Positions 26,311 to 58,268 of a stretch of 64,000 nucleotides of DNA are shown here, one piece after another. Below the pieces are notes generated by a model. The model ran no database searches. It saw only the letters and a list, made by a program, of their open reading frames with translations, and had not been told where the DNA came from. Location: NCBI GenBank assembly GCA_964421595.1, contig CAYQXY010000014.1, positions 10,536 to 74,535 on the forward strand, written 5' to 3'. The translations under genes and the position numbers were made by a program. Source of the stretch: an uncultured Bacteroidales bacterium. Its GTDB lineage: Bacteria; Bacteroidota; Bacteroidia; Bacteroidales; PUMT01. Each line of letters starts with the position of its first letter. Position 1 is the first letter of the stretch.

Positions 26311-27543
26311 TTATCCATTTAAAAACCTGTCAATAACAGCCTTGCCAAGTGTAATAAACTCACTGTTTTTTTCTTTAAATTCCCTTTCGGGGAATGAAAC
26401 GTATCCCTGTTCGCCCTTCGCACGCAAATACTGATGGGCGGCAACAATACACGCCCCTTCGTACCCGACAATCCGAAGTTCTTCATCAAGAGGAACCCCG
26501 CCCCTGGCAGAAACCTTCAGGGGATCGAGCGAAGGTGTGTTATGCTCGGTTCCGAACATAACAATAAATCCTTTTTCCCTGAAAAAAGTTACAAACGATT
26601 TAAGGATATTTAGGTCATTTCTTCCCGGTATAAGCTCAATACATGAAACATCCCACGATCTGAGACTTTTATACAGAGCCTCAGCATCAGACTCAAACTC
26701 AGTTTTCCAGCCCCTGGTGTCATCCAGTAAAACCGGGTAACAGGGGATGCCACCACCATCGCGGATTATTGAGATGATCTCACCCAGATCAAGAAAAGCC
26801 GCCGGGTCTTCCTCTACAAATGCAGCTCCGCCAGCCTTTAGCATCCTGCCCCTTATATCGTTTTCAACTGCTGCCGGACTGGTAACATCTGCAGAGGATT
26901 CCTTACCACCGTATAAAGTTTTAAGAAACTCCTTCCTTTCTTCGTCCGAACTGCACTTCACCTCCATCATCAATCTGACGGCACGGGCGATGTGTCTTTC
27001 CCTTACCATCCCTTTTGTAAACCTCTTCTTAATTTCATCAAAATCAAGATGCAAACTTCCATCTGCAGATTTCAGCTGTTGATTTAATTTTTCAGTCATC
27101 TGCCTGACCTGCCTGTGGCTTTCTGTGGTGATTCCGATTATCTTCTCAATTGACAACGGAGAAAAACTGACAGGAAAATCAAGGCCCTTCCCGCTGAAAT
27201 ATATGCGCCCCGGATTATTTGGATCGTTGACCCTTATTCCGTCCTGTTGCTCATTTTTCAGCAAGCCCATAAACTCGATGTTGAAAAGGGGAAAAACCTT
27301 ATATTTTATGCCAAACCGGGAAAAATCTTCATAACCAAGTGTAGTATTAAAATCGTTTATACCAAGTATTCTTACCTGCTCCCGCGAAGCAAGAATGAAT
27401 GCCTGCTGAGTGTCATCAAAGGCACTGAAGGAATATGGCGTATGAATATGTCCATTCACATCGGGAACCCTGGAAGCTTCTTTTTCTTTATAGCTGGCTA
27501 TCAAAATATCCCTGTCGGGAAATCCGTCCAAAAAATTAATCAT
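26311..27543 (-). CDS. Uncharacterised PHP-like metal-dependent hydrolase-fold protein
   Basis: 410 aa. It has an N-terminal NGHIHTPYSFSAFDD block (an HxH...S motif as in PHP domains) and a C-terminal FGTEHNTP block. It ends 12 nt before the RhaEW-like start. I do not recognise a characterised orthologue. Confidence 0.45.
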   Translation of the reverse strand: MINFLDGFPDRDILIASYKEKEASRVPDVNGHIHTPYSFSAFDDTQQAFILASREQVRILGINDFNTTLGYEDFSRFGIKYKVFPLFNIEFMGLLKNEQQDGIRVNDPNNPGRIYFSGKGLDFPVSFSPLSIEKIIGITTESHRQVRQMTEKLNQQLKSADGSLHLDFDEIKKRFTKGMVRERHIARAVRLMMEVKCSSDEERKEFLKTLYGGKESSADVTSPAAVENDIRGRMLKAGGAAFVEEDPAAFLDLGEIISIIRDGGGIPCYPVLLDDTRGWKTEFESDAEALYKSLRSWDVSCIELIPGRNDLNILKSFVTFFREKGFIVMFGTEHNTPSLDPLKVSARGGVPLDEELRIVGYEGACIVAAHQYLRAKGEQGYVSFPEREFKEKNSEFITLGKAVIDRFLNG

Positions 27544-34102: not shown

Positions 34103-36244
34103 CTAAAAATCCCGGGTCAGATTTTCCCACCTTACATTCCATTTCCCATTGTCAGGGAAGCCTGGGTTTTTCTCTTCATAACCTTCCCATCCGGCACACA
34201 TCAGGGCTATGGCCTTCAAAAAGCCGCCATTGCCGGGCATGTAAATACGCAGTCTCTGATCCTGGTAGTTGTGCCCGTTCAAGAGGTAGGTATTCTTTTG
34301 AACGTCTTTGAGCAGGCTTTCAATAGCTATTTCGGGTTCCAGCAAACGGGTGGCGCACATTGCCACCATGGGATAATCCCACCCCCAGGTTACCGGCCAG
34401 TCCCATCTCTCCATTATGATCCTGAGAGTGTTTCTCATTGTTTCATTGTCAATTTTTTCCCACCCGGGAAGCATGCCAAGGCTACCTAATACCATAGGGT
34501 GATCACGCATATTGGAAGGGTCTGTATATGAATCTGATGCGTTGCCTGTCCCCATATACAAACCGTCAACAGCAAATGGTCCGGGCAGCTTTGAGCGTAC
34601 ATCCTCCCATTTGGGAACAGTTTCCTGTCCCATGCGCTCCTTCCATTGAAGCGCAGTCGTCAATCCCCAATACCAGTAGGCAAGTTCGAAGGGAGGATTG
34701 ACAGTTGTTTCCCGGTTCCAGTGTTCCTGTGCGGGAATAAGCGGAGGCATCAGGTTATATACATCATTCTCCGGATCGTATACAGGAAAGTCGGCCATAA
34801 ATTCTGCCGTCGCGAATACAAGGTCGGCATACTCATTCAGCACTTCAACCGATCTATCGGAGCGGTACAGCTGTTCTACAAGATATATGAAATGTGGCTG
34901 CTGCCATATTAGGTATGTACCCACCGATGACGGACTGTCCTGTCCGTCCGGACCAACCATTTTAGGCCATCGGACACCTTCATACCCCTGAAGTCTTGCT
35001 GTCTCCAGGGCCTGTGGATATATATCACGGTAATATTGTAATTGACCTGCCATATAACGGGTTCGTTGCCAGTTATAAAAATGCGCACTGTGCCACCATA
35101 TCATCTCAAGATGGAATTTACCAAACCAGCTGTTGAAGGTCAGTCCTGTTTCCTGTGGCGGAAGGTTTCCGGAACCCTGAATTTTAGTAAGATACTGTGA
35201 GAGAACTGTTCTGCGCTCAAGTTCCTCAGCACGGGGATCAGTGCAGTCAGAAAAATCAACGGCGCCTCCGGATTTCCAGAAACTTTCCCAGTGAATCTCA
35301 TTATTATGCATTGTTTCTTCAAAATCAGGGAGAGCTTCATCATTATGACTGGCCGAGAAAAGGCAGCTGAACTCAAGTATTCCGGTATCGGTGGATGGCT
35401 TTATGTGAAAACGATGCCTGTCTGCCTCTGATATCCGGGCACCCTGGCTCCATTCCAGGCTGGCAAAATAGCTGTCGTTATCAATTTCACGGGATATCAG
35501 TGCGCTTCTGCTGCCTGTGTTCACAAGTGTGGATTTATGTTTACCGGGCTGATCCAGATCGTAACCCGGATGGGTATGTACTGCCCGGCCATAGGAAAAC
35601 AGCAGTTCGACCGACAGGCGTCCCAGGTCTATGAGCGGTGAACTGATTCGGGCTGCTATCATATCCTTTTCCTGATGAACAAAGACAAGTACCGAGACCG
35701 GCACTCCTTCCACCATGAATTCACTGGAGATTTCTCCCCTCCATAAATCCAGTCTGTGACGGGGTTGTTGAATGTCGTCTATAATAACCTCTTCACCATT
35801 CTCCTTGCAGATCAGCAACCGGATCAACCCCAGATGCAATCTATGCGGATTCTCACGGAAATAGTTTACAGCCTCCGCCGCACGCGCTGAAGTTCTCAAC
35901 TGATCCCTGTACGGTACCTGGCGCCCTTCTACTTCATAATGATTCCAGGTCTCCTGTATTTCATAGTTTCCGGTATTGGGAAGGGTATGCCAGCCCCAGT
36001 TGGACTGTGTTCCAAGAGAAACACCATTTTCATATTCCCTGAAAAAGGTTTGCAGTCCGGTAAAATCGGTTGTAAAGGCAAAATTGCCGTTCCCTGCAGA
36101 AAGAGAGGCAAGAGTATCAAATTTCTCCACTACAATATTGTGGCGGTTCACAAGCGCATGCCGGTCAATCTTGTCCATTTGATTTTCAGCACAGGAAAAT
36201 AACATAATTATCGACAGGCAAATTCCAGGTATTGTCAAATTCAT
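34103..36244 (-). CDS. Lipoprotein, putative glycoside hydrolase with GH65/GH95-like architecture (family not assignable by eye)
   Basis: 713 aa with a lipobox (SIIMLFSC). An N-terminal beta-sandwich-like region (LDLWRGEISSEFMVEGVPVSVLVFVHQ) is followed by a Trp/His-rich helical region (FHLEMIWWHSAHFYNW, LIWQQPHFIY), suggesting an (alpha/alpha)6 barrel. Confidence 0.4.
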   Translation of the reverse strand: MNLTIPGICLSIIMLFSCAENQMDKIDRHALVNRHNIVVEKFDTLASLSAGNGNFAFTTDFTGLQTFFREYENGVSLGTQSNWGWHTLPNTGNYEIQETWNHYEVEGRQVPYRDQLRTSARAAEAVNYFRENPHRLHLGLIRLLICKENGEEVIIDDIQQPRHRLDLWRGEISSEFMVEGVPVSVLVFVHQEKDMIAARISSPLIDLGRLSVELLFSYGRAVHTHPGYDLDQPGKHKSTLVNTGSRSALISREIDNDSYFASLEWSQGARISEADRHRFHIKPSTDTGILEFSCLFSASHNDEALPDFEETMHNNEIHWESFWKSGGAVDFSDCTDPRAEELERRTVLSQYLTKIQGSGNLPPQETGLTFNSWFGKFHLEMIWWHSAHFYNWQRTRYMAGQLQYYRDIYPQALETARLQGYEGVRWPKMVGPDGQDSPSSVGTYLIWQQPHFIYLVEQLYRSDRSVEVLNEYADLVFATAEFMADFPVYDPENDVYNLMPPLIPAQEHWNRETTVNPPFELAYWYWGLTTALQWKERMGQETVPKWEDVRSKLPGPFAVDGLYMGTGNASDSYTDPSNMRDHPMVLGSLGMLPGWEKIDNETMRNTLRIIMERWDWPVTWGWDYPMVAMCATRLLEPEIAIESLLKDVQKNTYLLNGHNYQDQRLRIYMPGNGGFLKAIALMCAGWEGYEEKNPGFPDNGKWNVRWENLTRDF

Positions 36245-36519: not shown

Positions 36520-37008
36520 TTACTTATCTTCGTATTCCTTTAAGATCTTCTTTACACCATCAGGGGCAACACGGCCATAGGTCTTGTCGCCAACCAGCAC
36601 CACGGGAGCCAGTCCGCACGCACCCACACAGCGCAGTCCGGCTATTGAGAACTTGCCGTCAGCAGTTGTCTCGCCGACAGGCACCTTCAGCAGACGCTTA
36701 ACCTCATCAAGCACCTTTTCGGCACCACGCACATAACACGCTGTTCCTGTGCATACCGAAATCGGGAACCTCCCGCGGGGAACCATTGTGAAAAACGAGT
36801 AGAAAGTCACTACACCGTATACTTTTGCTACAGAAACATTAAGTTCCCTGGCAACTACTTCCTGAACTTCAGCCGGCAGGTATCCAAAAATGCTTTGGGC
36901 CTTATGAAGCACATTTATAAGTTCACCTGCCTCGTTATTGAAAGATTTGCAAACTTCCTTCAATTGCCGAAGGTCATTTTCTTTGAGTCTTATTTTAATT
37001 GCTGACAT
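36520..37008 (-). CDS. hydC: [FeFe]-hydrogenase NuoE-like [2Fe-2S] subunit (HydC/HndA)
   Basis: 162 aa. It has the thioredoxin-like 2Fe-2S cysteine pattern (SVCTGTAC...LRCVGACGLAP) and a NuoE-type N-terminus (LINVLHKAQSIFGYLP). Confidence 0.88.
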   Translation of the reverse strand: MSAIKIRLKENDLRQLKEVCKSFNNEAGELINVLHKAQSIFGYLPAEVQEVVARELNVSVAKVYGVVTFYSFFTMVPRGRFPISVCTGTACYVRGAEKVLDEVKRLLKVPVGETTADGKFSIAGLRCVGACGLAPVVLVGDKTYGRVAPDGVKKILKEYEDK

Positions 37009-37044: not shown

Positions 37045-38835
37045 TTATTCTGCCTCCTTCACGTCCGGTTCAATACAAATTACACTTCCTCGGCGGAAAT
37101 ATTTTGTATGAAGAAGATGATGAGCCTTTTCCCCTAGTGGCTGACCAAGGAACTCCTCGTAGAGCTTTATGATTGAAGGATTTTCGTGTGATTTCCTCAC
37201 CGGCTTGTCTTTATCCTCCTGGTAAATCGCTCTCTGCCTGGCTTTAAGTATTTCCGAATTGCCATGATGCAGCGGCTGTCCGCCTCCGCCAATGCAACCT
37301 CCGGGACAAGCCATTATCTCTATGGCATGAAATTCACTTTTTCCTGAACGGATGTCATCAAGAAGTTTTCTCGCATTACCCAGTCCGTGAGCAATACCAA
37401 TCCGCAACGGAAACCCGTCAAAGTCAATTGTAGCCTCGCGTATCCCCTCCATTCCTCTGAGTTGTTCGAAATCAACTTTATCAAGCGTCTTTTTGGTGTG
37501 AAGCTCATAGGCGCTCCTAACGGCCGCTTCAATAACACCTCCGGTGGTACCAAAGATCACTGCTGCACCGGTTGATTCACCCATTGGCATGTCAAAATCC
37601 TGGTCGGGCAGTTTATTGAAATCAATATTAGCCCTTTTAATAAGGTTTGCAAGCTCTCTGGTCGACAAAGAGAAGTCAACATCGGGGTTACCGTTTGTAG
37701 CAAACTCCTCACGGGTACATTCATATTTCTTTGCAACACAAGGCATAATCGAAACTACAACCATATCTTTACGGTCGGTTTTGATCTTCTCGGCAAAGTA
37801 TGTTTTTGCAATTGCTCCGAACATCTGTTGCGGAGATCTTGCAGTTGAAGGAATGTCAAGCATATCCGGAAAGTGATGCTCGAAAAAGCTCACCCACCCC
37901 GGGCAACATGATGTAAGAATAGGCAACTTTGCTGATTTGTCGCCTGCCAGAAACTTACCGAGTCTTGAGAGTATTTCTGCACCCTCTTCCATTATTGTCA
38001 GGTCGGCGGCAAAATCGGTATCAAAAACATAATCAAACTCAAGTTCACGCAAAGCTGCAACCATCTTGCCTGTAACCAGCGTACCCGCCTCCATGCCAAA
38101 CTCCTCGCCGAGTGCCGCCCTTACTGCGGGTGCTGTCTGAACTACGACAGTCTTTGTCGGGTCAGCCAGTGCACGAAGAACCTGGTTGGTGTGATCCACC
38201 TCTGTCAAGGCAGCGGTAGGGCAAACAGCAACACACTGTCCGCAATAGGTACACTCACTATGATCAAGATTTCTTTCAAAAGCCGGAGCGACTACCGCCT
38301 CAAATCCACGGTTAATACCCGAAAGCACACCCACAGTCTGCACATCGTTGCACATTTTCTCACAACGGCGGCACATAATACACTTATCCATGTCCCTTAT
38401 TATCGAAGGAGATGTATCGGGTTTATAAGTTGATTTTTCTCCCTCATAGGGAATTTCCCTGATTCCAAATTTGATGGCCATGCTTTGAAGGTCACATGTT
38501 CCCGATTTGGGACAGGTAAGACATTCAAAAGGATGGTCGGAAAGCATCAGTTCCATTACAGTACGGCGGGCATTCAGCACCCTTATACTATGTGTCTTAA
38601 CCTCCATCCCGTCATGGCAGTCAGTTGCACAGGAAGGAGCAAGATTTCGGCGGCCTTCAACTTCGACAACACAAATACGGCAACCTCCGGGCTTATGTTC
38701 TATGCCCATATCGCCAAGATGCATGTAACAAAGAGTAGGTATTTCAACGCTGATCATTTTCGCAGCCTCAAGGATAGTTGTTCCCTGTTCTACCTCAATC
38801 AGCTTATTATCTATTTTGACTTTAAGTTTTTCCAT
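37045..38835 (-). CDS. hydA: [FeFe]-hydrogenase catalytic subunit (M3 type)
   Basis: 596 aa. The N-terminus carries a 2Fe-2S domain, a His-ligated 4Fe-4S cluster and two 4Fe-4S clusters. The H-cluster motifs TSCCPGW, MPCVAKKYE and EIMACPGGCIGGGGQP are all canonical. Confidence 0.95.
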   Translation of the reverse strand: MEKLKVKIDNKLIEVEQGTTILEAAKMISVEIPTLCYMHLGDMGIEHKPGGCRICVVEVEGRRNLAPSCATDCHDGMEVKTHSIRVLNARRTVMELMLSDHPFECLTCPKSGTCDLQSMAIKFGIREIPYEGEKSTYKPDTSPSIIRDMDKCIMCRRCEKMCNDVQTVGVLSGINRGFEAVVAPAFERNLDHSECTYCGQCVAVCPTAALTEVDHTNQVLRALADPTKTVVVQTAPAVRAALGEEFGMEAGTLVTGKMVAALRELEFDYVFDTDFAADLTIMEEGAEILSRLGKFLAGDKSAKLPILTSCCPGWVSFFEHHFPDMLDIPSTARSPQQMFGAIAKTYFAEKIKTDRKDMVVVSIMPCVAKKYECTREEFATNGNPDVDFSLSTRELANLIKRANIDFNKLPDQDFDMPMGESTGAAVIFGTTGGVIEAAVRSAYELHTKKTLDKVDFEQLRGMEGIREATIDFDGFPLRIGIAHGLGNARKLLDDIRSGKSEFHAIEIMACPGGCIGGGGQPLHHGNSEILKARQRAIYQEDKDKPVRKSHENPSIIKLYEEFLGQPLGEKAHHLLHTKYFRRGSVICIEPDVKEAE

Positions 38836-38851
38836 TATTGTCCTTGAATTA

Positions 38852-40645
38852 TTATGCTATTCTGATAGCGTTAAACTTACACTTGTCGAAGCAGGCTCCG
38901 CACTTGATACACAAGCTCTGATCTATCAGATGGATCTCCTTCCGCTCACCCGAAATACAGTTGACCGGGCAATTACGTGCACAAGCAGTACAACCGACAC
39001 AGTTTTCCGGTATTACTTCATATGTAATAAGCTCCTTGCACTGACCTGCCGGGCATTTATGATCTTCAATATGGGCTATATACTCGGCCATGAAATTATC
39101 CATGGTAGAAAGAACCGGATTTGGAGATGTCTGACCGAGTCCGCAAAGGGAAGTATCCTTTATTACTTCACTCAGGTTCCTGAGTTTATCAAGATCGGCA
39201 TGAGTGCCGTTACCTTTGCTTATCTTGTCGAGCAATTCATAAAGCCTCTTGTTTCCTATACGGCAGGGTGTACATTTTCCGCATGATTCTTCAACCGTAA
39301 AGTCAAGGTAAAATTTCGCAACGGAAACCATACAATCATCTTCATCCATAACAATCATACCGCCCGAACCCATCATCGATCCGCTGGCGAGGAGGTTATC
39401 AAAATCAATTGGTGTGTCAAGATGTTTCTCAGTCAGACATCCACCCGAAGGTCCTCCGGTCTGTACAGCCTTGAATTTTTTTCCGTCTTTTATTCCTCCC
39501 CCAATCTCGAAAATAACTTCACGAAGGGTGGTTCCCATAGGTACTTCAATAAGTCCCACGTTATTGATCTTCCCCGCAAGTGCAAATACCTTTGTACCTT
39601 TCGATTTTTCGGTACCGATAGAGGCAAACCATTTTGCTCCCTTATTGAAAATAACCGGTATGTTTGCAAAAGTCTCAACATTATTAACGTTGGTTGGTTT
39701 GCCAAGGTAACCCGATTGTGCCGGGAATGGCGGCTTGAATGTAGGCTCGCCCCTGTGTCCCTCCATTGAATGGATCAGGGCAGTTTCCTCACCGCAAACA
39801 AATGCACCGGCACCATATCTGATCTCTATATCAAAATTAAAACCTGTGCCCAGTATATCTTTGCCGAGCAAGCCATATTCACGAGCCTGGTTCAATGCGA
39901 TTTTCAATCGTTCTATAGCAAGGGGATATTCAGCCCTTATGTAAACGAGTCCGTGATCAGCCCCGATACAATAACCATTTATTGCCATTGCCTCAATAAC
40001 CGAATGAGGATCACCTTCGAGGATTGACCTGTCCATGAATGCCCCCGGGTCGCCCTCATCAGCATTACAAACCACATATTTCTGATCTGATTCTACCTTG
40101 CGTGCGATTCCCCACTTTACGCCTGTTGGAAAACCACCGCCTCCGCGCCCTCTAAGGCCTGAGTCAATCATCTCCTGAGTTGCGGTTTCAGGCGTCATTT
40201 CAGTCAGCACCTTTCCCAGCGCGGCATAGCCATCTGCAGCAAGATACTCATCAATATTCTCAGGATTAATAAATCCGCAGTTCCGCAATGCAATCCGGAT
40301 CTGTTTTTTATAGAATCCCATATGCTTTGAGTCACTTACAGTCTCCTTTTTAACTGGATCCTTGTAAAGAAGACGCTTAACCTGACGCCCTTTAACAGCA
40401 TGTTCCTCTATTATTTCGGCTGCATCGACAGGTTTTACCTCGGTATAAAATGTGTTGTCGGGAATCACCTTTACTATCGGCCCTTTTTCACAGAAACCAA
40501 AACAGCCTGTTGCGATTACCTGTACATCACCTGACAGAGCTTTAACGTCAACCTCCTGTTTAAGATTCTCAAGAAGCAGGTTACTCTCTGAAGCATGACA
40601 GCCGGTACCACCGCATACAAGGATGTGCATTTTGTATTTAGACAT
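38852..40645 (-). CDS. hydB: [FeFe]-hydrogenase NuoF-like flavin/NAD(P)H-binding subunit (HydB/HndC)
   Basis: 597 aa. It has an N-terminal thioredoxin-like 2Fe-2S domain (ILVCGGTGCHAS), the NuoF core (GLRGRGGGGFPTG, CNADEGDPGAF, ESCGKCTPCR) and two C-terminal 4Fe-4S ferredoxin motifs. Confidence 0.93.
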   Translation of the reverse strand: MSKYKMHILVCGGTGCHASESNLLLENLKQEVDVKALSGDVQVIATGCFGFCEKGPIVKVIPDNTFYTEVKPVDAAEIIEEHAVKGRQVKRLLYKDPVKKETVSDSKHMGFYKKQIRIALRNCGFINPENIDEYLAADGYAALGKVLTEMTPETATQEMIDSGLRGRGGGGFPTGVKWGIARKVESDQKYVVCNADEGDPGAFMDRSILEGDPHSVIEAMAINGYCIGADHGLVYIRAEYPLAIERLKIALNQAREYGLLGKDILGTGFNFDIEIRYGAGAFVCGEETALIHSMEGHRGEPTFKPPFPAQSGYLGKPTNVNNVETFANIPVIFNKGAKWFASIGTEKSKGTKVFALAGKINNVGLIEVPMGTTLREVIFEIGGGIKDGKKFKAVQTGGPSGGCLTEKHLDTPIDFDNLLASGSMMGSGGMIVMDEDDCMVSVAKFYLDFTVEESCGKCTPCRIGNKRLYELLDKISKGNGTHADLDKLRNLSEVIKDTSLCGLGQTSPNPVLSTMDNFMAEYIAHIEDHKCPAGQCKELITYEVIPENCVGCTACARNCPVNCISGERKEIHLIDQSLCIKCGACFDKCKFNAIRIA

Positions 40646-40671: not shown

Positions 40672-41064
40672 TTAATCAATAGTTTCATAATTCACCGGAA
40701 TGATGCCGTCAACCAGCTCACCCAGCTTAATATATTTTTCAATTATCTCGTCTGCTTTCTTCAGATCGACATAGCCGTAAACAACCGGGTCCTGACCGGG
40801 AAGTTTTACTTCAATTGTCGGTTCTGCATAACAATATCCCATGCATCCGGTCTGGGTAACCACAGCTTCAATATTGCGTTTTTCCAGGTTACCAACCATA
40901 AACTCCATTACTTCCTTTGCTCCTGATGCAATTCCACAGGTGGCCATGGCAACCTTTACCTGAACCAATCCCTCGGGATGTTCACTTTTCTCTCTTAAAG
41001 AAATATTAGACCGCAGTTGATCCTGCATTTTCTTCAGGTCTGCCAGTGATTTAACTTTTGTCAT
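40672..41064 (-). CDS. Small thioredoxin-like [2Fe-2S] ferredoxin subunit (HndB-like)
   Basis: 130 aa with the cysteine pattern MATCGIASGA...TGCMGYCYAEP. It is the first gene of the structural block. Confidence 0.78.
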   Translation of the reverse strand: MTKVKSLADLKKMQDQLRSNISLREKSEHPEGLVQVKVAMATCGIASGAKEVMEFMVGNLEKRNIEAVVTQTGCMGYCYAEPTIEVKLPGQDPVVYGYVDLKKADEIIEKYIKLGELVDGIIPVNYETID

Positions 41065-41109: not shown

Positions 41110-41117
41110 CAAATGTA
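41110..41117 (-). promoter_or_regulatory. Candidate internal -7 promoter box for the structural hydrogenase genes
   Basis: The minus strand reads TACATTTG (TAnnTTTG). It lies in the 93-nt gap between the GHKL ATPase gene and the HndB-like gene, about 45 nt upstream of the ATG at 41064. Confidence 0.35.
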
Positions 41118-41157: not shown

Positions 41158-41706
41158 TCACAGAGTATCTGAAAGATCAGCCAAATTCTCCTTTATCATC
41201 TCCTTCATATACCTTATAACTGCAGGCTCACTAAGTGGAACTTCCTCGAGAACTTCTTTAACTTCCCTTGTATCAAATACATATGATGATTTACCGATAT
41301 TGTGACGATATTTAAAATCCAGTCCCGGATTAGCACCTGCAAGCATGCTTATTACACCTGCAATATCACCTGTTGGCGGGCAATCCATATGAGAACGACA
41401 AAATTTAGCAGTCAGCCGGGTGCCGGTTCCCGGTTCAGAAATTATCTCCAGACTACCGCCTGCCTGTTCAGCATTGTGCTTAAACAGAGGTATACCCATT
41501 CCAACCTTCCTTGTGGTCCTGCTTGTATAATACGGGTCAGAAACCCTTTCCACCACCTCCCTTGTCATTCCCCTTCCATTATCTTCTATTGCTATAATCA
41601 GTTCATCTTTCTCGGGTGATTCCATGATTTCAATATCAATACAAGATGCCCCGGCAGAAATAGAATTCTGTGCAATATCAAGAATATGAAGCGCAATTTC
41701 TTTCAT
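41158..41706 (-). CDS. GHKL (histidine-kinase-like) ATPase domain protein, stand-alone
   Basis: 182 aa with an N box (HILDIAQNSISAGA), G1 (EDNGRGM) and G2 (VGMGIPL...EPGTGTR). There is no HisKA/DHp or sensor domain. Its start overlaps the PHP stop by 4 nt. Confidence 0.75.
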   Translation of the reverse strand: MKEIALHILDIAQNSISAGASCIDIEIMESPEKDELIIAIEDNGRGMTREVVERVSDPYYTSRTTRKVGMGIPLFKHNAEQAGGSLEIISEPGTGTRLTAKFCRSHMDCPPTGDIAGVISMLAGANPGLDFKYRHNIGKSSYVFDTREVKEVLEEVPLSEPAVIRYMKEMIKENLADLSDTL

Positions 41707-42443
41707 GGGAAAATCACTTTTCTTCCTCCTTCATTGGCAAGAGCCATCCTGATTTCGGAAAAGCTTATTTCCTGTAATTGGAATACCGAAGGGGCAATTC
41801 CAATATCTTCAGGAAAATGAGCGTCAGAACTATGTAAAAATGTATAATCTTTAAGATATTGATTTGAACCGAGAAACTCCTCCTTGCTTATATGACGTGA
41901 TAATTCAAGTGCGTCTGCCTTGAGACCGGACGGAACAAATCCAAGCTGGCTGATCAGGCTGTTGCGTGTCCGGTTTATATGTGCAGGGATAAACAATCCC
42001 CCGAGCATATGAACCATTTGCTCTATCTCTTCTACACTCTGATCTATTGCATTAAACAATAAATTCTCCTCTTCATGCAGTATTATTTCATTTTCATCGA
42101 CTACCACCTGATGTCCGAAGCGCTGAGTATCATTGGGGAAAGGGATAATCTTTTCATCCAGATATTTCTGGAAATCAGTCAACTGATCATTATTCTCAAA
42201 GAATGCGAGGCAATGTGCTTCCTCCCTGCTGGTTACCTCGGCGCCTGTTAGTACGAATATCTTTTCTTCAATTCCAATCTTGCGCATCAGTGGGCCATGC
42301 TTTGTAGAATTATGGTCGCTTATCCCTATTATATCCAGTTTCATTTCCAGGGCACGTTTGATGATGTTGCGCGGACTCATCTCCAGGTCACCGCAGGGTG
42401 ACAGGACTGAATGAATGTGTAAATCTGCCCTGAACTCTTTCAT
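41703..42443 (-). CDS. PHP-domain metal-dependent phosphoesterase
   Basis: 246 aa with DLHIHSVLSPCGD, GISDHNS, PAHINR and HSSDAH, which are the classical PHP His/Asp ligand blocks. Confidence 0.85.
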   Translation of the reverse strand: MKEFRADLHIHSVLSPCGDLEMSPRNIIKRALEMKLDIIGISDHNSTKHGPLMRKIGIEEKIFVLTGAEVTSREEAHCLAFFENNDQLTDFQKYLDEKIIPFPNDTQRFGHQVVVDENEIILHEEENLLFNAIDQSVEEIEQMVHMLGGLFIPAHINRTRNSLISQLGFVPSGLKADALELSRHISKEEFLGSNQYLKDYTFLHSSDAHFPEDIGIAPSVFQLQEISFSEIRMALANEGGRKVIFP

Positions 42444-42448
42444 AGTTT

Positions 42449-42781
42449 TTATTTAATAAGGGCATGCAGTTTCCCTGCAAGCTCAAATGTCTGTAAAGTG
42501 CTGCCAAGAACCGGAATGTTTTCCTTGTTGCTCTGTGCTGCCATATCAGGATCAGGCTTAAGACCCTTGACCAGTATGACGGCTGCAAGATCCTTCAGCG
42601 ATGATATCGCCATAACGTTTTTATGGGTCTGCAGAGTAATCCATACCATACCGTTATCAGCATTACCCATGACATCGCTTAACAGATCAGATACATATCC
42701 TCCGTCAACCTCATTATCAAGTCCCTTGTCGCCCGAAAACACCGTTAATTCAAGCTTTTTAACCAAATCGGCTACTTTCAT
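42449..42781 (-). CDS. Small DRTGG-like domain protein (copy 2)
   Basis: I moved the start to the ATG at 42781 (MKVADLVKKL...), because the track start 42829 would overlap the upstream gene. It is about 110 aa. It is a paralogue of the 44642..44986 product (shared DLLSDVM/DLMSDVL and VxITxxxxxxxxxxA blocks). The DRTGG assignment comes from my memory of similar Firmicute hydrogenase loci. Confidence 0.6.
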   Translation of the reverse strand: MKVADLVKKLELTVFSGDKGLDNEVDGGYVSDLLSDVMGNADNGMVWITLQTHKNVMAISSLKDLAAVILVKGLKPDPDMAAQSNKENIPVLGSTLQTFELAGKLHALIK

Positions 42782-42822
42782 GATGTAAATTATTAAAAAT
42801 TTATAACTGAATAATTGAAATA

Positions 42823-44190
42823 TCAACAATTTTTATCAAGCTTATCACTTCCCCATATCCCTTTCATTATGCTGAAGGACTCTTCGGCCGATAATATACC
42901 TTTCTTCTCAAAGATCCTCTGTACAAATACACACTGGTTGACCTTTGCATAACCCTGAACAATATCTTCGGCAAATGACTGACAATTAGGTGAACCGCAT
43001 GCGCCACAATCGACGTCAGGAAGACACTTCCCGATTTCCTCAACCCTTTTCATTTTCTTCAGGGCCTCTGACATATCCTCATCGAGTTTAAGCATTGAAC
43101 GTGGCTGTACCGGCTGCAAGGCGATCTTTAGCTTTAGCCTGCTTTTCTTGTGGAAAATGTCTGTGCTGCCACCTGGTATCTTTCTTTCACTCTCCGGCCC
43201 TGCCTTGGCTGCACGATTTTTTAACCGTTCAACAGTAAAGAAGCGGTTGGCAGTGGTCAGAACTCCCCCCGCACAGCTTTCATCACATGCCCGAAGCTCA
43301 AGGAAATCGATATCCTTCATTTCCTCATTTTCGAGCTGTTCAAGGAAATTTATTACATTGTGGATCTCATCAACCGCCATACTCCTTCCCTTCGCATGCG
43401 CCGATTCACCATTTGTAAGGCTCCAGAGTATCGACTTGTCTGACAACTCCCTTAATTCCGGCACGATACAAGAATCTCCTTTTCCCTGCTTTATTTTTGT
43501 ATAAGCTTTGTTAAAGATGAAATTCATATTTATGACACCGGTAATGGGAGAATCTTTTTCACCTACCGGACTTTTTACTGCAGCTATTTTTGCAGCACAG
43601 GGGGTTATGTAGAAAATTCCGATATCATTTTTATCATGACCGTCTTCAATCAGTTGCTTCCTGAAATACAGTGCCGATACATCAAGTGGTGGTTTAAGAT
43701 GGATAAGGTTGTCTACAAGAGCAGGGAATTTTACCTGAATCAGCCGGACTATCGCAGGACAAAAAGCTGATATCAAAGGCTTTGTTCCCCTGTGTTTCTC
43801 CATGTACTCCATCATTGCCTCATGCAGGATCTCTACCCCCTGCTCAACTTCATATACATGAGTAAAACCAAGTTCCATGAGTTCACTGTGGATCTGCCTG
43901 GTAGTAATGTTATCAGGAAATTGCCCGGTCAGAACAGCCGGAACCAGTGCCAATCTTATCTTGTACTCAAATATCCTGTTAAAGTCATCCTGTTCGACAA
44001 TGATTGCACTTACCGGACATACCCTGTAGCAGAATCCACAATCTACACACCGGTTATCAATCAGAATGGCTTTGCCATCCTTCACACGTATAGCCTCCGT
44101 CGGGCATATATGCATACAGTGAGTGCAGCCTATGCAGACATCTTTACGAATCTTGAGTGCATGATGAAAATCTGGATTCTTCACGCCCAT
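42823..44190 (-). CDS. HydA-like putative sensory [FeFe]-hydrogenase (HydS-like, no PAS/output domain)
   Basis: 455 aa. The N-terminus has two 4Fe-4S motifs (CIGCTHCMHICP, CVDCGFCYRVCP). The H-domain keeps its cluster cysteines but in altered motifs: SAFCPAIV, ITPCAAKIAA and ELRACDESCAGG. The C-terminus has the CGACGSPNC Fe-S motif. Confidence 0.8.
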   Translation of the reverse strand: MGVKNPDFHHALKIRKDVCIGCTHCMHICPTEAIRVKDGKAILIDNRCVDCGFCYRVCPVSAIIVEQDDFNRIFEYKIRLALVPAVLTGQFPDNITTRQIHSELMELGFTHVYEVEQGVEILHEAMMEYMEKHRGTKPLISAFCPAIVRLIQVKFPALVDNLIHLKPPLDVSALYFRKQLIEDGHDKNDIGIFYITPCAAKIAAVKSPVGEKDSPITGVINMNFIFNKAYTKIKQGKGDSCIVPELRELSDKSILWSLTNGESAHAKGRSMAVDEIHNVINFLEQLENEEMKDIDFLELRACDESCAGGVLTTANRFFTVERLKNRAAKAGPESERKIPGGSTDIFHKKSRLKLKIALQPVQPRSMLKLDEDMSEALKKMKRVEEIGKCLPDVDCGACGSPNCQSFAEDIVQGYAKVNQCVFVQRIFEKKGILSAEESFSIMKGIWGSDKLDKNC

Positions 44191-44609
44191 TTCCCTCCGG
44201 TTATATTAGTAATCATTTCTACTCTTGTTCCCTTACCCACCTCACTACTTATATTAAGATGATCAACATTTTTCTTAATATTAGGAAGCCCCATCCCAGC
44301 TCCGAAACCCATTTCCCTGACTTCCTGCGATGCTGTTGAGAAACCCTCCACCATAGCCTGATCTATATCGGGAATGCCCGGTCCTGAGTCTTCAAGTACC
44401 AGAACGATTCTCTCTTCATCAATCTCGACCTTCATTACCCCGCTATAGGCGTGGGCTACAATATTGACTTCAGCTTCATAAAGAGCAACAACCACCCTCT
44501 TGACAATTTGCAGATCGACATTCAGCTGCTTCAGTTTTTTTTTCACTTCACTTGAAGCATATCCAGCTTTTGAAAAATTCCCCCCTTCTATTTCATACTC
44601 AAATTGCAT
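44181..44609 (-). CDS. RsbW/SpoIIAB-like GHKL serine-kinase/anti-sigma-type protein
   Basis: 142 aa with EAEVNIVAHA (N box), EDSGPGI (G1) and GFGAGMGLPNI...GKGTRVE (G2). Its 3' end overlaps the HydS-like start by 10 nt. Confidence 0.72.
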   Translation of the reverse strand: MQFEYEIEGGNFSKAGYASSEVKKKLKQLNVDLQIVKRVVVALYEAEVNIVAHAYSGVMKVEIDEERIVLVLEDSGPGIPDIDQAMVEGFSTASQEVREMGFGAGMGLPNIKKNVDHLNISSEVGKGTRVEMITNITGGKWA

Positions 44610-44641
44610 AATAAGGCAGTTAAATTAATAACTCTCCGGCT

Positions 44642-44986
44642 CTAATAAACCGGTTTCAGGCCTGACTGAAAAAGCAACCCGCTGGTGCGGAACATCGAGT
44701 ATCTGCATTCGATAAGATCTATACCACTTTCCAGAGCAAGTTCAGCCATTTCAGGAGTGACCTTTTTGTTCCTTGCAAATATAATACAGTTTATATCAGC
44801 CATCTCTGCTGTCCTTATTGTTTGCAAGGTAGCAAGTCCTGTTATTAAAACCACATTATCATTTTTAAGTGTAAGCACATCACTCATCAGATCAGATGAG
44901 AAAGCCATATCAAACGATTTATCGTCGCTGTTTCCATTGGAAATTATCCTACCGTCAATTGTCTTTGCTATTTCTTGCAGCTTCAT
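44642..44986 (-). CDS. Small DRTGG-like domain protein (copy 1), first gene of the operon
   Basis: 114 aa and a paralogue of the 42449..42781 product. Confidence 0.6.
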   Translation of the reverse strand: MKLQEIAKTIDGRIISNGNSDDKSFDMAFSSDLMSDVLTLKNDNVVLITGLATLQTIRTAEMADINCIIFARNKKVTPEMAELALESGIDLIECRYSMFRTSGLLFQSGLKPVY

Positions 44987-45011: not shown

Positions 45012-45029
45012 CTGTTATTAAATTAACAG
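45012..45029. promoter_or_regulatory. Rex-like inverted repeat, box 1
   Basis: CTGTTAT-TAAA-TTAACAG matches 11 of the 14 defined positions of TTGTTAA-N4-TTAACAA. It overlaps the predicted transcription start just downstream of the -7 box. Confidence 0.45.
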
Positions 45030-45031
45030 TA

Positions 45032-45039
45032 CAAAAATA
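45032..45039 (-). promoter_or_regulatory. Candidate -7 promoter box of the hydrogenase regulatory/structural operon
   Basis: The minus strand reads TATTTTTG (TAnnTTTG). A TTG lies about 20 nt upstream (ACTTGCAT). The box is 46 nt upstream of the first ATG (44986). Confidence 0.45.
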
Positions 45040-45067: not shown

Positions 45068-45085
45068 TTGTTAATTAATTAACAC
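45068..45085. promoter_or_regulatory. Rex-like inverted repeat, box 2
   Basis: TTGTTAA-TTAA-TTAACAC matches 13 of the 14 defined positions of the clostridial-type Rex consensus TTGTTAA-N4-TTAACAA. Confidence 0.55.
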
Positions 45086-45103
45086 TGTTAATCAATTAAC
45101 AGT
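45086..45103. promoter_or_regulatory. Rex-like inverted repeat, box 3 (directly abuts box 2)
   Basis: CTGTTAA-TCAA-TTAACAG is a perfect 7+7 palindrome and matches 12 of 14 consensus positions. Confidence 0.5.
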
Positions 45104-56330: not shown

Positions 56331-58268
56331 CTATTCATTCCAGAGATCAGGAATTGCCCCATGTCCGCGCGCCCGAACAGGTTCCTGAAAGGTAGGATCC
56401 AATGAGCCCGAATGGATTTCAAAAAGTCTTTTTGCAGTTTCCGACATAGCCTCAACCTGGTATTTGTATGGCCTGTCAGTAACATCAATAAGTCCGCAAT
56501 TATAGTTCTCGCCATCATAGCTGCGGCCTGTAAGATCCTGATCGGCCCACTGGAAATAAGCAGTACCAATAAGTCCGGGATGAGCATAAGCTTTTTCAGT
56601 GTAGTACCTGTAAGCAACGCCCCTCTCCATCTGGGAATTGACCTGCCATAAGGCTTGCGCCATGCCCCTGTCGACAGTTCCAAAATGATACTCTCCGATA
56701 ATCATTGGCAGGCCTGTTCCTTCCATCAGCCTGTCCATCATCTCTTGTGGCGGGTAGAGATCGTAGCAGTTAAAACTGAAAACATCAAAATTATCTTTGC
56801 ATATATCAAGAATCTCCTTGCCAGGTACATGGCCAAAACGCATTCCCAGATTCAGATGTCCCGGACTGTGCCGTTTAAGTGAAGAGTTCACTGTTTCAAG
56901 GAAGATCCGAAAGGTGTTGTAAATAAAATACTCTCTTCTTTCCGGCGTATCGCCATCAGCAAGGAATTGAACCAGTTCCTTTTTAACGGGTTTATCATCA
57001 TCCTCAGCAAGTATCATATCACAAAGCCTCTGTTCATGGCCCAGCCATGCTGGTTCATTGGCAATAAAGTAGCCTATCAGCCACGGATTGTCACTGTTAG
57101 GTTCAACAAACCTTCTGATCGATTCATCTATCACTTCGGCATAATCAGGTGCATACACATCAGAAAGTCCCATTAATCCACCCTCCAGCCTGAGATCCCT
57201 CAGCTGAAGCAGAAAAGCCTTCCGGTTTAGATTCATCACTTCTGAACTTGACCAGTTTGCGATGGTGTTTAAACCCCATCTTTCCATACGGTTGAAAATA
57301 TTGTCGATAGATTTTTCACGATAATCCTCACCATATCTTCTGTACAGGTTCCATGTCCCGAATGAAGCAACATCAGGCCTTTCAGGGTTAAAGCCTTTGC
57401 CTTCCGGCGGAAGTTCCCTGTACAGGTTTTCCCGCTTATCAATTCTGACGGCCTGGCCACCACCGCCGGGACTAACACAATCAACTCCTACAGACAGGAA
57501 GAGATAACCTTCAGGATCGACAAACCACCAGCGCCCGTCAATTAATTCAGTCCGGAAAAATCCGGTACCCTCATCAATTCGTGCATTCAGAAATCCACCA
57601 AACTCAGAGTAATTGTAATCATCCGGAACCTGGTTATCTTCGGCCTCCCATTCTTCTTTAAGCTGCTCCAGTGAATAGACCTTATCTTCCCAGTCACCGA
57701 GATTCCATTGTCCAAATTCATCAACAACAGGTTCTTCACCCAGGTACAGATCGCCAGGATCTTCTTTTGACAAGGATACAGAACGTATTTTAATTTTGGG
57801 ATCACCAACAGGAACTCTCATCCGGAAACCAATGGAATCTATGCCCCTGAGTGGTCCGCGCTGTCCTCCAAGGTTGATCCATCCAGTATGCCTTGGCTGG
57901 TTATAGGTTCCCGCAAGATCATGCCATGCCCCGGGTAACTCCCTGAAAAATCGTAAAGGTATAGCAAGTCTGTTCCATCCGTTTGGTGTATAACTCATTA
58001 CGCGCAACTCATTGTAACCTGTTTCTGTAGTAAATCCTACATGGAAACGCTGCGGAGTAGTGACCATAAACTCAATAATCACATATTCAAAATCATCCCA
58101 GTCAGCCGGCAATCCCGGAGATATATCATTCAGGGCAAATTTCCTGCCTGAAACTTCATGATTACTGTCGAACTTAACCTCGACATAATCACTGTTACAT
58201 GAATAAATACCGGCTATCATGAACAAAACCAGAACCAGCCCTGGTAATTTGGAAATTGTCTTAATCAT
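56331..58268 (-). CDS. Lipoprotein, putative clan GH-A (TIM-barrel) glycoside hydrolase with an N-terminal CBM-like domain
   Basis: 645 aa with a lipobox (MIAGIYSC). It has the candidate acid/base block IGYFIANEPAW (NEP) and the candidate nucleophile block PMIIGEYHFG. I could not assign the family by eye. Confidence 0.5.
   Translation of the reverse strand: MIKTISKLPGLVLVLFMIAGIYSCNSDYVEVKFDSNHEVSGRKFALNDISPGLPADWDDFEYVIIEFMVTTPQRFHVGFTTETGYNELRVMSYTPNGWNRLAIPLRFFRELPGAWHDLAGTYNQPRHTGWINLGGQRGPLRGIDSIGFRMRVPVGDPKIKIRSVSLSKEDPGDLYLGEEPVVDEFGQWNLGDWEDKVYSLEQLKEEWEAEDNQVPDDYNYSEFGGFLNARIDEGTGFFRTELIDGRWWFVDPEGYLFLSVGVDCVSPGGGGQAVRIDKRENLYRELPPEGKGFNPERPDVASFGTWNLYRRYGEDYREKSIDNIFNRMERWGLNTIANWSSSEVMNLNRKAFLLQLRDLRLEGGLMGLSDVYAPDYAEVIDESIRRFVEPNSDNPWLIGYFIANEPAWLGHEQRLCDMILAEDDDKPVKKELVQFLADGDTPERREYFIYNTFRIFLETVNSSLKRHSPGHLNLGMRFGHVPGKEILDICKDNFDVFSFNCYDLYPPQEMMDRLMEGTGLPMIIGEYHFGTVDRGMAQALWQVNSQMERGVAYRYYTEKAYAHPGLIGTAYFQWADQDLTGRSYDGENYNCGLIDVTDRPYKYQVEAMSETAKRLFEIHSGSLDPTFQEPVRARGHGAIPDLWNE

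Follow-up and report, generated by a model that had tools for sequence, protein, structure and literature searches.

A group D putative sensory [FeFe]-hydrogenase and its conserved gene neighbours at the front of a probably Rex-controlled hydrogenase operon in Bacteroidales

Results

Ten genes on one strand

The locus described here lies on a 64,000-nucleotide (nt) stretch of DNA from an uncultured Bacteroidales bacterium (GenBank assembly GCA_964421595.1, contig CAYQXY010000014.1, positions 10,536 to 74,535), which we call the window and to which all coordinates refer unless a related locus is named. A SusD gene and the nearest homologues assign it to Bacteroidales/Marinilabiliales. Six tightly packed minus-strand genes (44986..41158) lead into hydD-hydB-hydA-hydC, giving ten genes in total. 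The first, DRTGG1 (44642..44986, 114 amino acids, aa), is a stand-alone DRTGG-like protein; it is followed by GHKL_A (44181..44609, 142 aa), a SpoIIAB/RsbW-like ATP-binding protein, and by HydS (42823..44190, 455 aa from its ATG), a group D (M2e) putative sensory [FeFe]-hydrogenase. Next come DRTGG2 (42449..42781, 110 aa from its ATG; the longest open reading frame, ORF, starts from a TTG at 42829), which is DRTGG- and Hpr_kinase_N-like; PHP (41703..42443, 246 aa), a PHP-family metal-dependent phosphoesterase whose stop overlaps the start of the following gene by 4 nt; and GHKL_B (41158..41706, 182 aa), which consists of a Bergerat ATP-binding domain and a conserved C-terminal domain of about 75 aa and has no dimerization and histidine phosphotransfer (DHp) domain. 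In gene order, the first two genes are 32 nt apart, the next pair overlap by 10 nt, gaps of 41 and 5 nt follow, and the last pair share the 4-nt overlap just mentioned. The representative of the HydS protein in the searched collection is 453 aa long, and if translation of HydS starts at the GTG two codons downstream (44184), the gene abuts GHKL_A with no overlap.

An earlier note on this DNA, made from the letters and their ORFs, had listed these six genes with the same coordinates, spacings and shared strand, and Pfam reproduces its domain calls for all six proteins. As the note had also said, this is not a two-component system: among the six proteins Pfam finds neither DNA-binding nor receiver domains, and neither HisKA/DHp nor PAS. 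Domain calls throughout are Pfam searches with the window proteins, and equivalog-level calls use NCBIfam/TIGR cut-offs.

The four remaining genes, also on the minus strand, follow GHKL_B after a gap of 93 nt. HydD-like (40672..41064, 130 aa) is a small thioredoxin-fold protein with three partly conserved Cys residues that scores 22.7 bits, below cut-off, against 2Fe-2S_thioredx. HydB (38852..40645, 597 aa) is a NuoF-like flavin and Fe-S subunit with Complex1_51K, NADH_4Fe-4S and Fer4 domains, and HydC (36520..37008, 162 aa) is a NuoE-like [2Fe-2S] subunit (2Fe-2S_thioredx, 168 bits). Between them lies HydA (37045..38835, 596 aa), a catalytic group A [FeFe]-hydrogenase of the NADH-dependent or bifurcating type, with both Fe_hyd_lg_C and Fe_hyd_SSU; with 904 bits it clears the cut-off of 765 set for NCBIfam NF040763 ("NADH-dependent [FeFe] hydrogenase, group A6"). 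HydA, a NuoF-like HydB and a NuoE-like HydC are encoded together, as is characteristic of the NADH-dependent/bifurcating type (group A3/A6), and by gene content we assign the window HydABC to this type, with electron bifurcation as a predicted activity; non-bifurcating look-alikes of HydABC have been described (PMC7311640). The 64-kb window contains no hydE, hydF or hydG maturase gene and no rex gene.

HydS belongs to the group D putative sensory hydrogenases

For the third gene product, HydS, a search of 1.84 billion representative proteins returned 337 clusters at E ≤ 1e-30, and conservation was read from an alignment of 48 diverse full-length family representatives. HydS contains two Fer4 domains (residues 13-63), an Fe_hyd_lg_C domain scoring 81.7 bits (322.7 bits for HydA) and a PF04060 FeS domain (residues 390-422), and Pfam finds no PAS domain in it. 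The N-terminal cysteines C19, C22, C25, C29, C48, C51, C54 and C58 are invariant or nearly so among the 48 representatives and make up two [4Fe-4S] motifs, and those of the C-terminal cluster (C395, C398, C403 and C420) are invariant. The H-domain cysteines C144, C198, C302 and C306, which correspond to C300, C355, C499 and C503 of the hydrogenase CpI, are invariant both in the 48 representatives and in 85 locus sequences. C144 and C198 were placed by alignment of HydA "LTSCCPGW" with HydS "ISAFCPAI" and of HydA "MPCVAK" with HydS "TPCAAK"; C302 and C306 were assigned by motif inspection, since BLAST left that region unaligned.

It follows from the alignment to HydA that the cluster-ligating cysteines are kept and that the proton-relay cysteine (CpI C299) is replaced by F143. 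No member of the family has Cys at this position, where F, A, S, T or Y stands instead, and in 72 of 85 loci the residue is F; the flanking Met positions are occupied by T196 (at M353) and R300 (at M497). HydS is about 36% identical to TamHydS of Thermoanaerobacter mathranii (translated from an OCR-damaged but colinear coding sequence in the supplement of PMC13104023), and 39% to an orthologue from Caldicoprobacter; the values are 25% for a group C-type HydS-PAS protein and 23% for the HydA encoded in the same operon. Searched by sequence or by fold, the PDB gives ordinary [FeFe]-hydrogenases of 19-23% identity as the best matches, no group D structure having been solved. Group D, or M2e, has been described by three features: no PAS domain, an additional cluster at the C-terminus and loss of the proton pathway (PMC8163306). 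By its sequence, then, HydS is a group D, TamHydS-type putative sensory [FeFe]-hydrogenase, in keeping with the earlier suggestion that this HydA paralogue is something other than an ordinary group A catalyst.

TamHydS is the best described relative. It is reported to bind an H-cluster, to turn over slowly, to tolerate CO, to evolve and oxidise H2 in vitro and to shift in secondary structure under H2 (PMC8163306, PMC13104023). The two proteins have in common two [4Fe-4S] motifs, the H-domain, a C-terminal four-Cys cluster, the absence of PAS and the loss of the proton-relay Cys, and TamHydS likewise is encoded upstream of a bifurcating-type group A hydrogenase and beside a 'histidine kinase-like ATPase' (PMC8163306, PMC13104023). 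At the C299, M353 and M497 positions the window HydS has F, T196 and R300 where TamHydS has A, S and L; further differences are the Bacteroidales host and the absence of an adjacent AraC regulator. The host itself is not new, since the published list of 70 group D enzymes includes Parabacteroides, Odoribacter, Marinilabilia, Alkaliflexus, Anaerophaga and Proteiniphilum. According to the April 2026 study of TamHydS, the interaction partners of group D enzymes are still to be identified, and this is the critical missing step (PMC13104023).

Two DRTGG paralogues, found fused to HydS in other genomes

Both DRTGG proteins fall just under the gathering cut-off of Pfam DRTGG, DRTGG1 at E 3.8e-5 and DRTGG2 at E 2e-5; DRTGG1 also matches the DRTGG insert of CBS-pyrophosphatases, and DRTGG2 passes Hpr_kinase_N. 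A search of DRTGG1 against solved structures gave no useful match. The two are paralogues (hhalign probability 99.6%, E 7e-25) that share an invariant S-D-L-[LM]-S-D-V-[LM], seen as S31-D-L-M-S35-D-V-L in DRTGG1 and as Y29-x-S-D-L-L-S35-D-V-M in DRTGG2, where a second conserved motif, W47-x-T-x-Q-x-H53, follows. The DR/TGG residues from which the domain takes its name are absent from both.

Several representatives of the HydS family are longer than about 450 aa and carry extra domains. In four 50%-identity clusters HydS ends in a C-terminal DRTGG domain detected by Pfam (HydS::DRTGG2), with the tail signature Y-x-SD[ML]LS-x-V … W-x-T-x-Q-T-H-x-N; in a fifth cluster, P0219, a DRTGG2-like tail can be seen by eye in the alignment, and Pfam detects no DRTGG there. 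One HydS::DRTGG2 fusion is present on two independent contigs in which the usual gene order is kept. The reverse arrangement, DRTGG::HydS with an N-terminal DRTGG domain, is found in two clusters, and one cluster has an N-terminal HATPase_c_2 domain (GHKL::HydS). On a 3.5-kb metagenome contig (L087) the genes are rearranged to PHP–GHKL_B–DRTGG::HydS–HydD, the last encoding a small 2Fe-2S-like protein, and a GHKL_A gene is missing. Two AlphaFold2 (AF2) models were made, of GHKL_B and of one HydS::DRTGG fusion. The latter is confident throughout (predicted local distance difference test, pLDDT, 92; predicted template modelling score, pTM, 0.83), these being scores for the chain as a whole. The natural fusions argue for HydS and the DRTGG proteins acting in one complex, and are the strongest evidence for it among our data; the GHKL::HydS protein possibly extends the argument to the first GHKL.

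Two ATPases and a PHP enzyme

GHKL_A scores 46 bits on HATPase_c_2 (cut-off 27.4) and also matches HATPase_c. Its N, G1 and G2 ATP-binding boxes are intact and conserved, as are the ATP-binding boxes of GHKL_B, and its best solved relative is the anti-sigma F factor SpoIIAB (E 2e-7). On the SpoIIAB equivalog TIGR01925 it reaches 66 bits, where the cut-off is 135. PHP scores 29.4 bits on Pfam PHP (cut-off 26.4); among 73 sequences, conservation is 95% or higher at each of its metal-ligand residues H9, H11, D43, H44, E69, H77, H155, D207 and H209. The nearest families are Endonuclease Q (in PDB, E 1e-5), the PHP domains of TrlF and Ppl, RNase RNM and 3',5'-nucleoside bisphosphate (pAp) phosphatase, with all subfamily matches far below the family cut-offs. 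By sequence, the ATP-binding domain of GHKL_B is nearest to the catalytic and ATP-binding (CA) domains of histidine kinases (HATPase_c). Its AF2 model has a pLDDT of 90, with low confidence in residues 62-68 of the ATP-lid region; histidine-kinase CA domains cover just the first ~100 residues of the model, and the model contains no helical-hairpin DHp. By domain type and operon position GHKL_B corresponds to the 'HydE' of Acetobacterium woodii hydCEDBA, a protein with which we have compared it by description only.

A conserved gene order made of separable parts

A species-level scan of one genome per GTDB species, with a 14-sequence alignment as query, returned at least 588 loci with a relative. 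Gene order was compared in the best 80 of these, nearly all from Bacteroidales; the breadth of the arrangement beyond Bacteroidales rests on five added look-ups. Genes were scored by searching six-frame ORFs with the window proteins, and each denominator counts the loci with enough flank. In the roughly 80 Bacteroidales species loci the order DRTGG1–GHKL_A–HydS–DRTGG2–PHP–GHKL_B–HydD–HydB–HydA–HydC is nearly invariant, and the median intergenic distances among the six genes range from -4 to 12 nt. DRTGG1 is present in 80 of 81 loci and GHKL_A in all 82; DRTGG2 was found in 71/82, PHP in 68/77 and GHKL_B in 65/75, and HydD follows GHKL_B in 57/72. On these gene-order counts from species genomes the accessory families co-occur with HydS and hydABC far beyond chance.

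The claim that the six genes form one indivisible unit did not survive the comparison. The complete gene set is present in 49 of 68 loci, and eight have DRTGG1–GHKL_A–HydS only, amid unrelated neighbours; nearly every locus has either the whole block of DRTGG2, PHP and GHKL_B or none of it. In Acetivibrio saccincola the first five genes stand without GHKL_B, and the 10 kb read downstream of them contain no hydrogenase gene. The "six-gene module" therefore has three parts: a DRTGG1–GHKL_A–HydS core, a DRTGG2–PHP–GHKL_B block and, within the latter, the HydE-like GHKL_B. We keep the word module for the six genes as they stand in the window.

The earlier note had mentioned similar accessory genes beside HydABC operons in thermophilic Firmicutes, and two such cases were found. 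Caldicoprobacter has DRTGG–GHKL–HydS–DRTGG–PHP–HydC–GHKL–HydD–HydB–HydA, and Koleobacter the same arrangement, with a CBS–GHKL fusion and rex upstream; in both, hydC comes first among the hyd genes. The fusion, at L084:7093-9984 in the locus of Koleobacter methoxysyntrophicus, joins the GHKL_A orthologue to CBS, and the stretch before it, with a 116-aa ORF and a 62-aa CBS fragment, is broken up by a DDE transposase; this hints at a CBS (adenine-nucleotide) input in some lineages. The same locus encodes, directly after hydA (L084:18010-20619), an 869-aa protein in which a HydS-like H-domain is combined with FeS, PAS and sigma54-activator AAA+ domains. It appears to be an H2-sensing transcription activator of group C type contained in one protein, and it shares its locus with the group D module.

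The Bacteroidota context had been taken as a sign that the module moves together with the hydrogenase. Recent transfer finds no support: HydS orthologues of 50-81% identity are numerous and widespread in Bacteroidales, the G+C content of the module equals that of its surroundings, and Bacteroidota are already in the published group D set. Two metagenome-assembled genomes labelled Sediminispirochaeta (loci L064 and L079) have the three-gene core at 51-52% identity, the level seen within Bacteroidales, and no downstream block; these cores could reflect lateral transfer or a mis-binned contig.

About 30 Bacteroidales loci (e.g. L006, L007, L010, L022:6045-9035 and L030:5324-8808) have a second hydC-hydB-hydA set directly upstream of the module, which puts a hydrogenase on either side of the sensor genes. 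Its HydB is shorter, ~386-388 aa, in the two loci looked at; the set contains no GHKL_B or HydD and often has a Rex box of its own. It is absent from the window.

Rex-type operators precede the module

Three Rex-type operators of the form TGTTA-N6-TAACA, absent from the earlier note, lie at 45086-45101, 45069-45084 and 45013-45028, that is, 115, 98 and 42 nt upstream of the DRTGG1 ATG. They are the only matches to this palindrome in the 64-kb window, where 0.04 are expected, and all three fall within the 466-nt region upstream of DRTGG1. The same palindrome occurs no more than ~330 nt upstream of the DRTGG1 orthologue in 42 of 81 loci (mean of 1.7 and maximum of 5 in shuffles), where palindromes are often paired, 17 or 23 bp apart. 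The related loci, 1.45 Mb in all, contain 91 exact sites: 59 are upstream of DRTGG1, 16 of an upstream hydC, 6 of hydD, 3 of GHKL_B and 3 of rex. In 10 Bacteroidales loci (L008-L013, L015, L021, L023 and L028) the module is directly preceded by a rex homologue, which ends ~200-300 nt before DRTGG1; in an eleventh, L045, it is on the opposite strand, ~7 kb off. In Koleobacter it is close upstream of the module (L084:6372-7019).

The window palindrome is the same as the Rex operators published for Thermoanaerobacter ethanolicus (ATTGTTANNNNNNTAACAAT) and Thermoanaerobacterium saccharolyticum (PMC5886521, PMC6391272). In Clostridia and Thermoanaerobacterales the operator TTGTTA-N6-TAACAA is described as preceding hyd and hfs operons, Rex represses [FeFe]-hydrogenase genes, and in Caldicellulosiruptor the hyd operons are likewise repressed by Rex (PMC5886521, PMC6391272). 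Relative to this regulon the window operators differ in being in Bacteroidales, in tandem, and in a window without rex. With three such operators just upstream, transcription of the operon is therefore probably under the control of Rex, i.e. of NADH/NAD+.

Candidate promoter elements are less distinct. The -7 consensus of Bacteroides promoters is TAnnTTTG, and one element that fits it, TATTTTTG (45032..45039, minus strand), lies between the Rex boxes. A weak internal candidate, TACATTTG (41110..41117, minus strand), is found in the gap before hydD. The position of the first is suggestive only, because TAnnTTTG is not enriched in the window overall. Scans for sigma-70 promoters and terminators returned background levels.

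Discussion

A possible hydrogen-sensing complex and its alternatives

We read the locus as a Rex-controlled ten-gene hydrogenase operon whose front half encodes a hydrogen-sensing regulatory complex, and we hold this reading with roughly even confidence. Beyond the identity of the parts and their linkage, the mechanism is what we infer. HydS, DRTGG1, DRTGG2 and GHKL_A would form one complex, in which binding or slow turnover of H2 at the H-cluster would alter the redox state or conformation of HydS, and the altered HydS would change the ATP-dependent activity of one or both GHKL partners. More speculatively, the DRTGG proteins might replace STAS proteins as phospho-acceptor, with S31 and S35 as candidate residues, or as switching partner of GHKL; the PHP enzyme might reset the state; and the target of the output might be the neighbouring HydABC(D) enzyme, or a regulator whose gene lies elsewhere, and not DNA directly. 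Bifurcating HydABC interconverts NADH, reduced ferredoxin and protons with H2, which places NADH and H2 on opposite sides of the reaction (PMC9304861). With Rex setting transcription, the operon would sense both the substrate NADH and the product H2 of its own reaction. In Thermoanaerobacterium, deletion of the group C sensor gene hfsB is reported to shift the expression of the Rex-regulon genes adhE and rex, and sensor modules may therefore feed into the Rex regulon.

The earlier note had proposed a partner-switching or phospho-switch logic. This holds as an analogy only. As in the RsbW–RsbV and SpoIIAB–SpoIIAA systems, GHKL_A is a small stand-alone HATPase_c_2 protein with conserved ATP boxes; unlike in those systems, the 64 kb contain no STAS antagonist, sigma factor or PP2C phosphatase, PHP is nuclease- or nucleotidase-like, and GHKL_B is as MutL-like as it is kinase-like; the likeness is one of logic and not of membership. 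A bolder version, in which two DRTGG proteins, two GHKL proteins and PHP make up a new signalling chassis, with DRTGG in place of STAS, a PHP eraser in place of PP2C, an H-cluster protein as the input, and post-translational hydrogenase control or modulation of the Rex regulon without a dedicated DNA-binding protein as the output, seems to us doubtful.

Several observations weigh against a hydrogen-sensing complex. The search for STAS, sigma factor and PP2C covered window ORFs of at least 150 aa by Pfam, and the scanned neighbour ORFs of related loci contain none of the three either. The module encodes no output domain or regulator, and where the three-gene core stands alone, the neighbours scanned (a subset) include no output regulator; they are unrelated genes, for example for peptidases, UvrA and a glycosyltransferase. 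PHP has no match to the CpsB/YwqE protein phosphatases, its relatives being nucleases and nucleotidases. The full-length GHKL_B model best matches N-terminal ATPase fragments of PMS2, MutL, MLH1 and Topo VI-B, with template modelling (TM) scores of 0.5-0.59, and this resemblance to MutL-type ATPases means that GHKL_B is possibly an ATPase switch and not a kinase. The Ser conserved in the DRTGG motif may have a structural role, and the GHKL::HydS fusion, seen in a single cluster, could have arisen artefactually from a frameshift between two genes that overlap. From the literature, the C-terminal cluster of TamHydS is reported to stay oxidised under H2, and the sensory role is termed putative (PMC13104023); for HydE of A. 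woodii the authors suggest 'assembly or signalling' (PMC3315566, PMC7242416).

On another reading, the accessory proteins would be assembly, stabilisation or activity-gating factors of HydABC(D) and not a signalling pathway, with the GHKL proteins as ATP-driven clamps and HydS as a scaffold, an electron-transfer subunit or a redox-poising subunit. The position of GHKL_B and HydD within hydrogenase operons would suit such a role, as would the MutL, PMS2, MLH1 and Topo VI-B fit of the GHKL_B model, the lack of an output or DNA-binding domain in the module and its co-transcription with the structural genes. We nevertheless consider it rather unlikely. The DRTGG1–GHKL_A–HydS core is found in loci without hydrogenase genes, in up to 10 kb read per side; many HydABC enzymes have been made and purified without the accessory genes; the known maturases are HydE, HydF and HydG; the upstream hydCBA sets of ~30 loci do without GHKL_B and HydD; and TamHydS acts as a slow, CO-tolerant, sensor-type enzyme.

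A further alternative is a mechanism based on small-molecule nucleotides in place of protein phosphorylation. The DRTGG proteins, joined in some lineages by CBS domains, would bind adenine nucleotides or a related ligand, PHP would hydrolyse a nucleotide phosphoester and the GHKL proteins would be ATP/ADP switches, so that H2 is integrated with energy charge. The regulatory region of CBS-pyrophosphatases binds AMP, ADP and Ap4A, and the match of DRTGG1 to their DRTGG insert, the fusion of Koleobacter GHKL_A to CBS domains, and the best matches of PHP (Endonuclease Q, TrlF, Ppl, RNase RNM and 3',5'-nucleoside bisphosphate phosphatase) all point this way. However, the module contains no nucleotide cyclase or synthetase, the DR/TGG residues are missing here and ligand binding by DRTGG is hypothetical, and every PHP match is far under its family cut-off; on balance we find such a mechanism quite improbable. 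That HydS is a plain second metabolic hydrogenase, with unrelated regulators next to it by chance, is hardly credible: it keeps all Cys residues for the H-cluster and two F-clusters, and TamHydS can evolve and oxidise H2 in vitro, but the proton-relay Cys is lost family-wide, identity to the catalytic HydA is just 23%, synteny and gene fusions tie HydS to its neighbours, and TamHydS turnover is low.

Comparison with known systems

The other [FeFe]-hydrogenases discussed as sensors belong to group C, whose proposed partners are an RsbW-like kinase and a PP2C phosphatase. In these systems the H2 signal has been proposed to pass to the adjacent Ser/Thr kinase and phosphatases. Like the window HydS, the group C proteins (Ruminococcus albus HydS, that of Thermoanaerobacterium hfsABCD, and Thermotoga TmHydS) lack the proton-relay Cys and have a C-terminal cluster; unlike it, they contain a PAS domain. 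If the analogy holds, PHP stands in the place of the phosphatase, and the DRTGG proteins are extra.

In A. woodii hydCEDBA a GHKL gene is followed by hydD-hydB-hydA, an order shared with the window, Caldicoprobacter and Koleobacter; HydE is a GHKL ATP-binding protein and HydD a small extra subunit (PMC3315566, PMC7242416). The window differs in that hydC comes last and not first, and in that a five-gene sensor cluster precedes the GHKL gene. The [NiFe] regulatory hydrogenase system HoxBC–HoxJ–HoxA of Ralstonia/Cupriavidus embodies the same idea of a slow sensor hydrogenase which, together with a kinase, controls hydrogenase genes. The proteins are unrelated, and HoxJ is a full PAS-histidine kinase with the response regulator HoxA, whereas the module has no DHp, receiver or DNA-binding output.

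Published work and significance

Much of the frame is already published: group D itself, its putative sensory role, its position upstream of bifurcating hydrogenases and the flanking kinase-like ATPase; HydE and HydD in hyd operons; and the control of hyd operons by Rex in Firmicutes. In the searchable literature we did not find the set of two DRTGG paralogues with PHP, the two-block structure, the fusions or the Rex boxes of Bacteroidales described; a prior mention in Poudel et al. 2016, who reportedly analysed the genes flanking hydA, is possible. In the literature searched for DRTGG or PHP together with hydrogenase, the module is not described. A keyword search of the accessible text of the TamHydS papers likewise finds no mention of the DRTGG genes, the PHP gene or the fusions (PMC8163306, PMC13104023). 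The earlier note knew of no mechanistic description of the module; we found none either, and the 2026 paper calls the partners unidentified.

H2 is the product that sets a thermodynamic limit on the metabolism of fermenting anaerobes, and the [FeFe]-hydrogenases of groups C and D are so far only "putative" sensors of it. Through synteny and fusions the locus nominates partners for such a sensor, namely DRTGG1, DRTGG2 and GHKL_A, and then PHP and GHKL_B; as far as gene order and sequence can tell, these accessory proteins are the best candidates yet for its signalling partners. Since Rex boxes precede the sensor operon, the system could respond to NADH/NAD+ as well as to H2. Bacteroidales of guts, digesters and sediments commonly carry the module, whose logic is therefore relevant to H2 flux there, and its presence makes the sensor hypothesis testable in genetically tractable Bacteroidota.

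Unassigned open reading frames of the window

Directly 3' of hydC lies a 713-aa ORF (34103-36244, minus strand) with no Pfam match; it appears unrelated to the module, because its sole homologue among the compared loci is on the window's own contig. Three further ORFs have no Pfam match at E ≤ 1e-5: 20755-22143 (plus strand, 462 aa), 26311-27543 (minus strand, 410 aa) and 56331-58268 (minus strand, 645 aa). Their neighbours are sugar/rhamnose, 2-oxoacid dehydrogenase and cell-wall genes.

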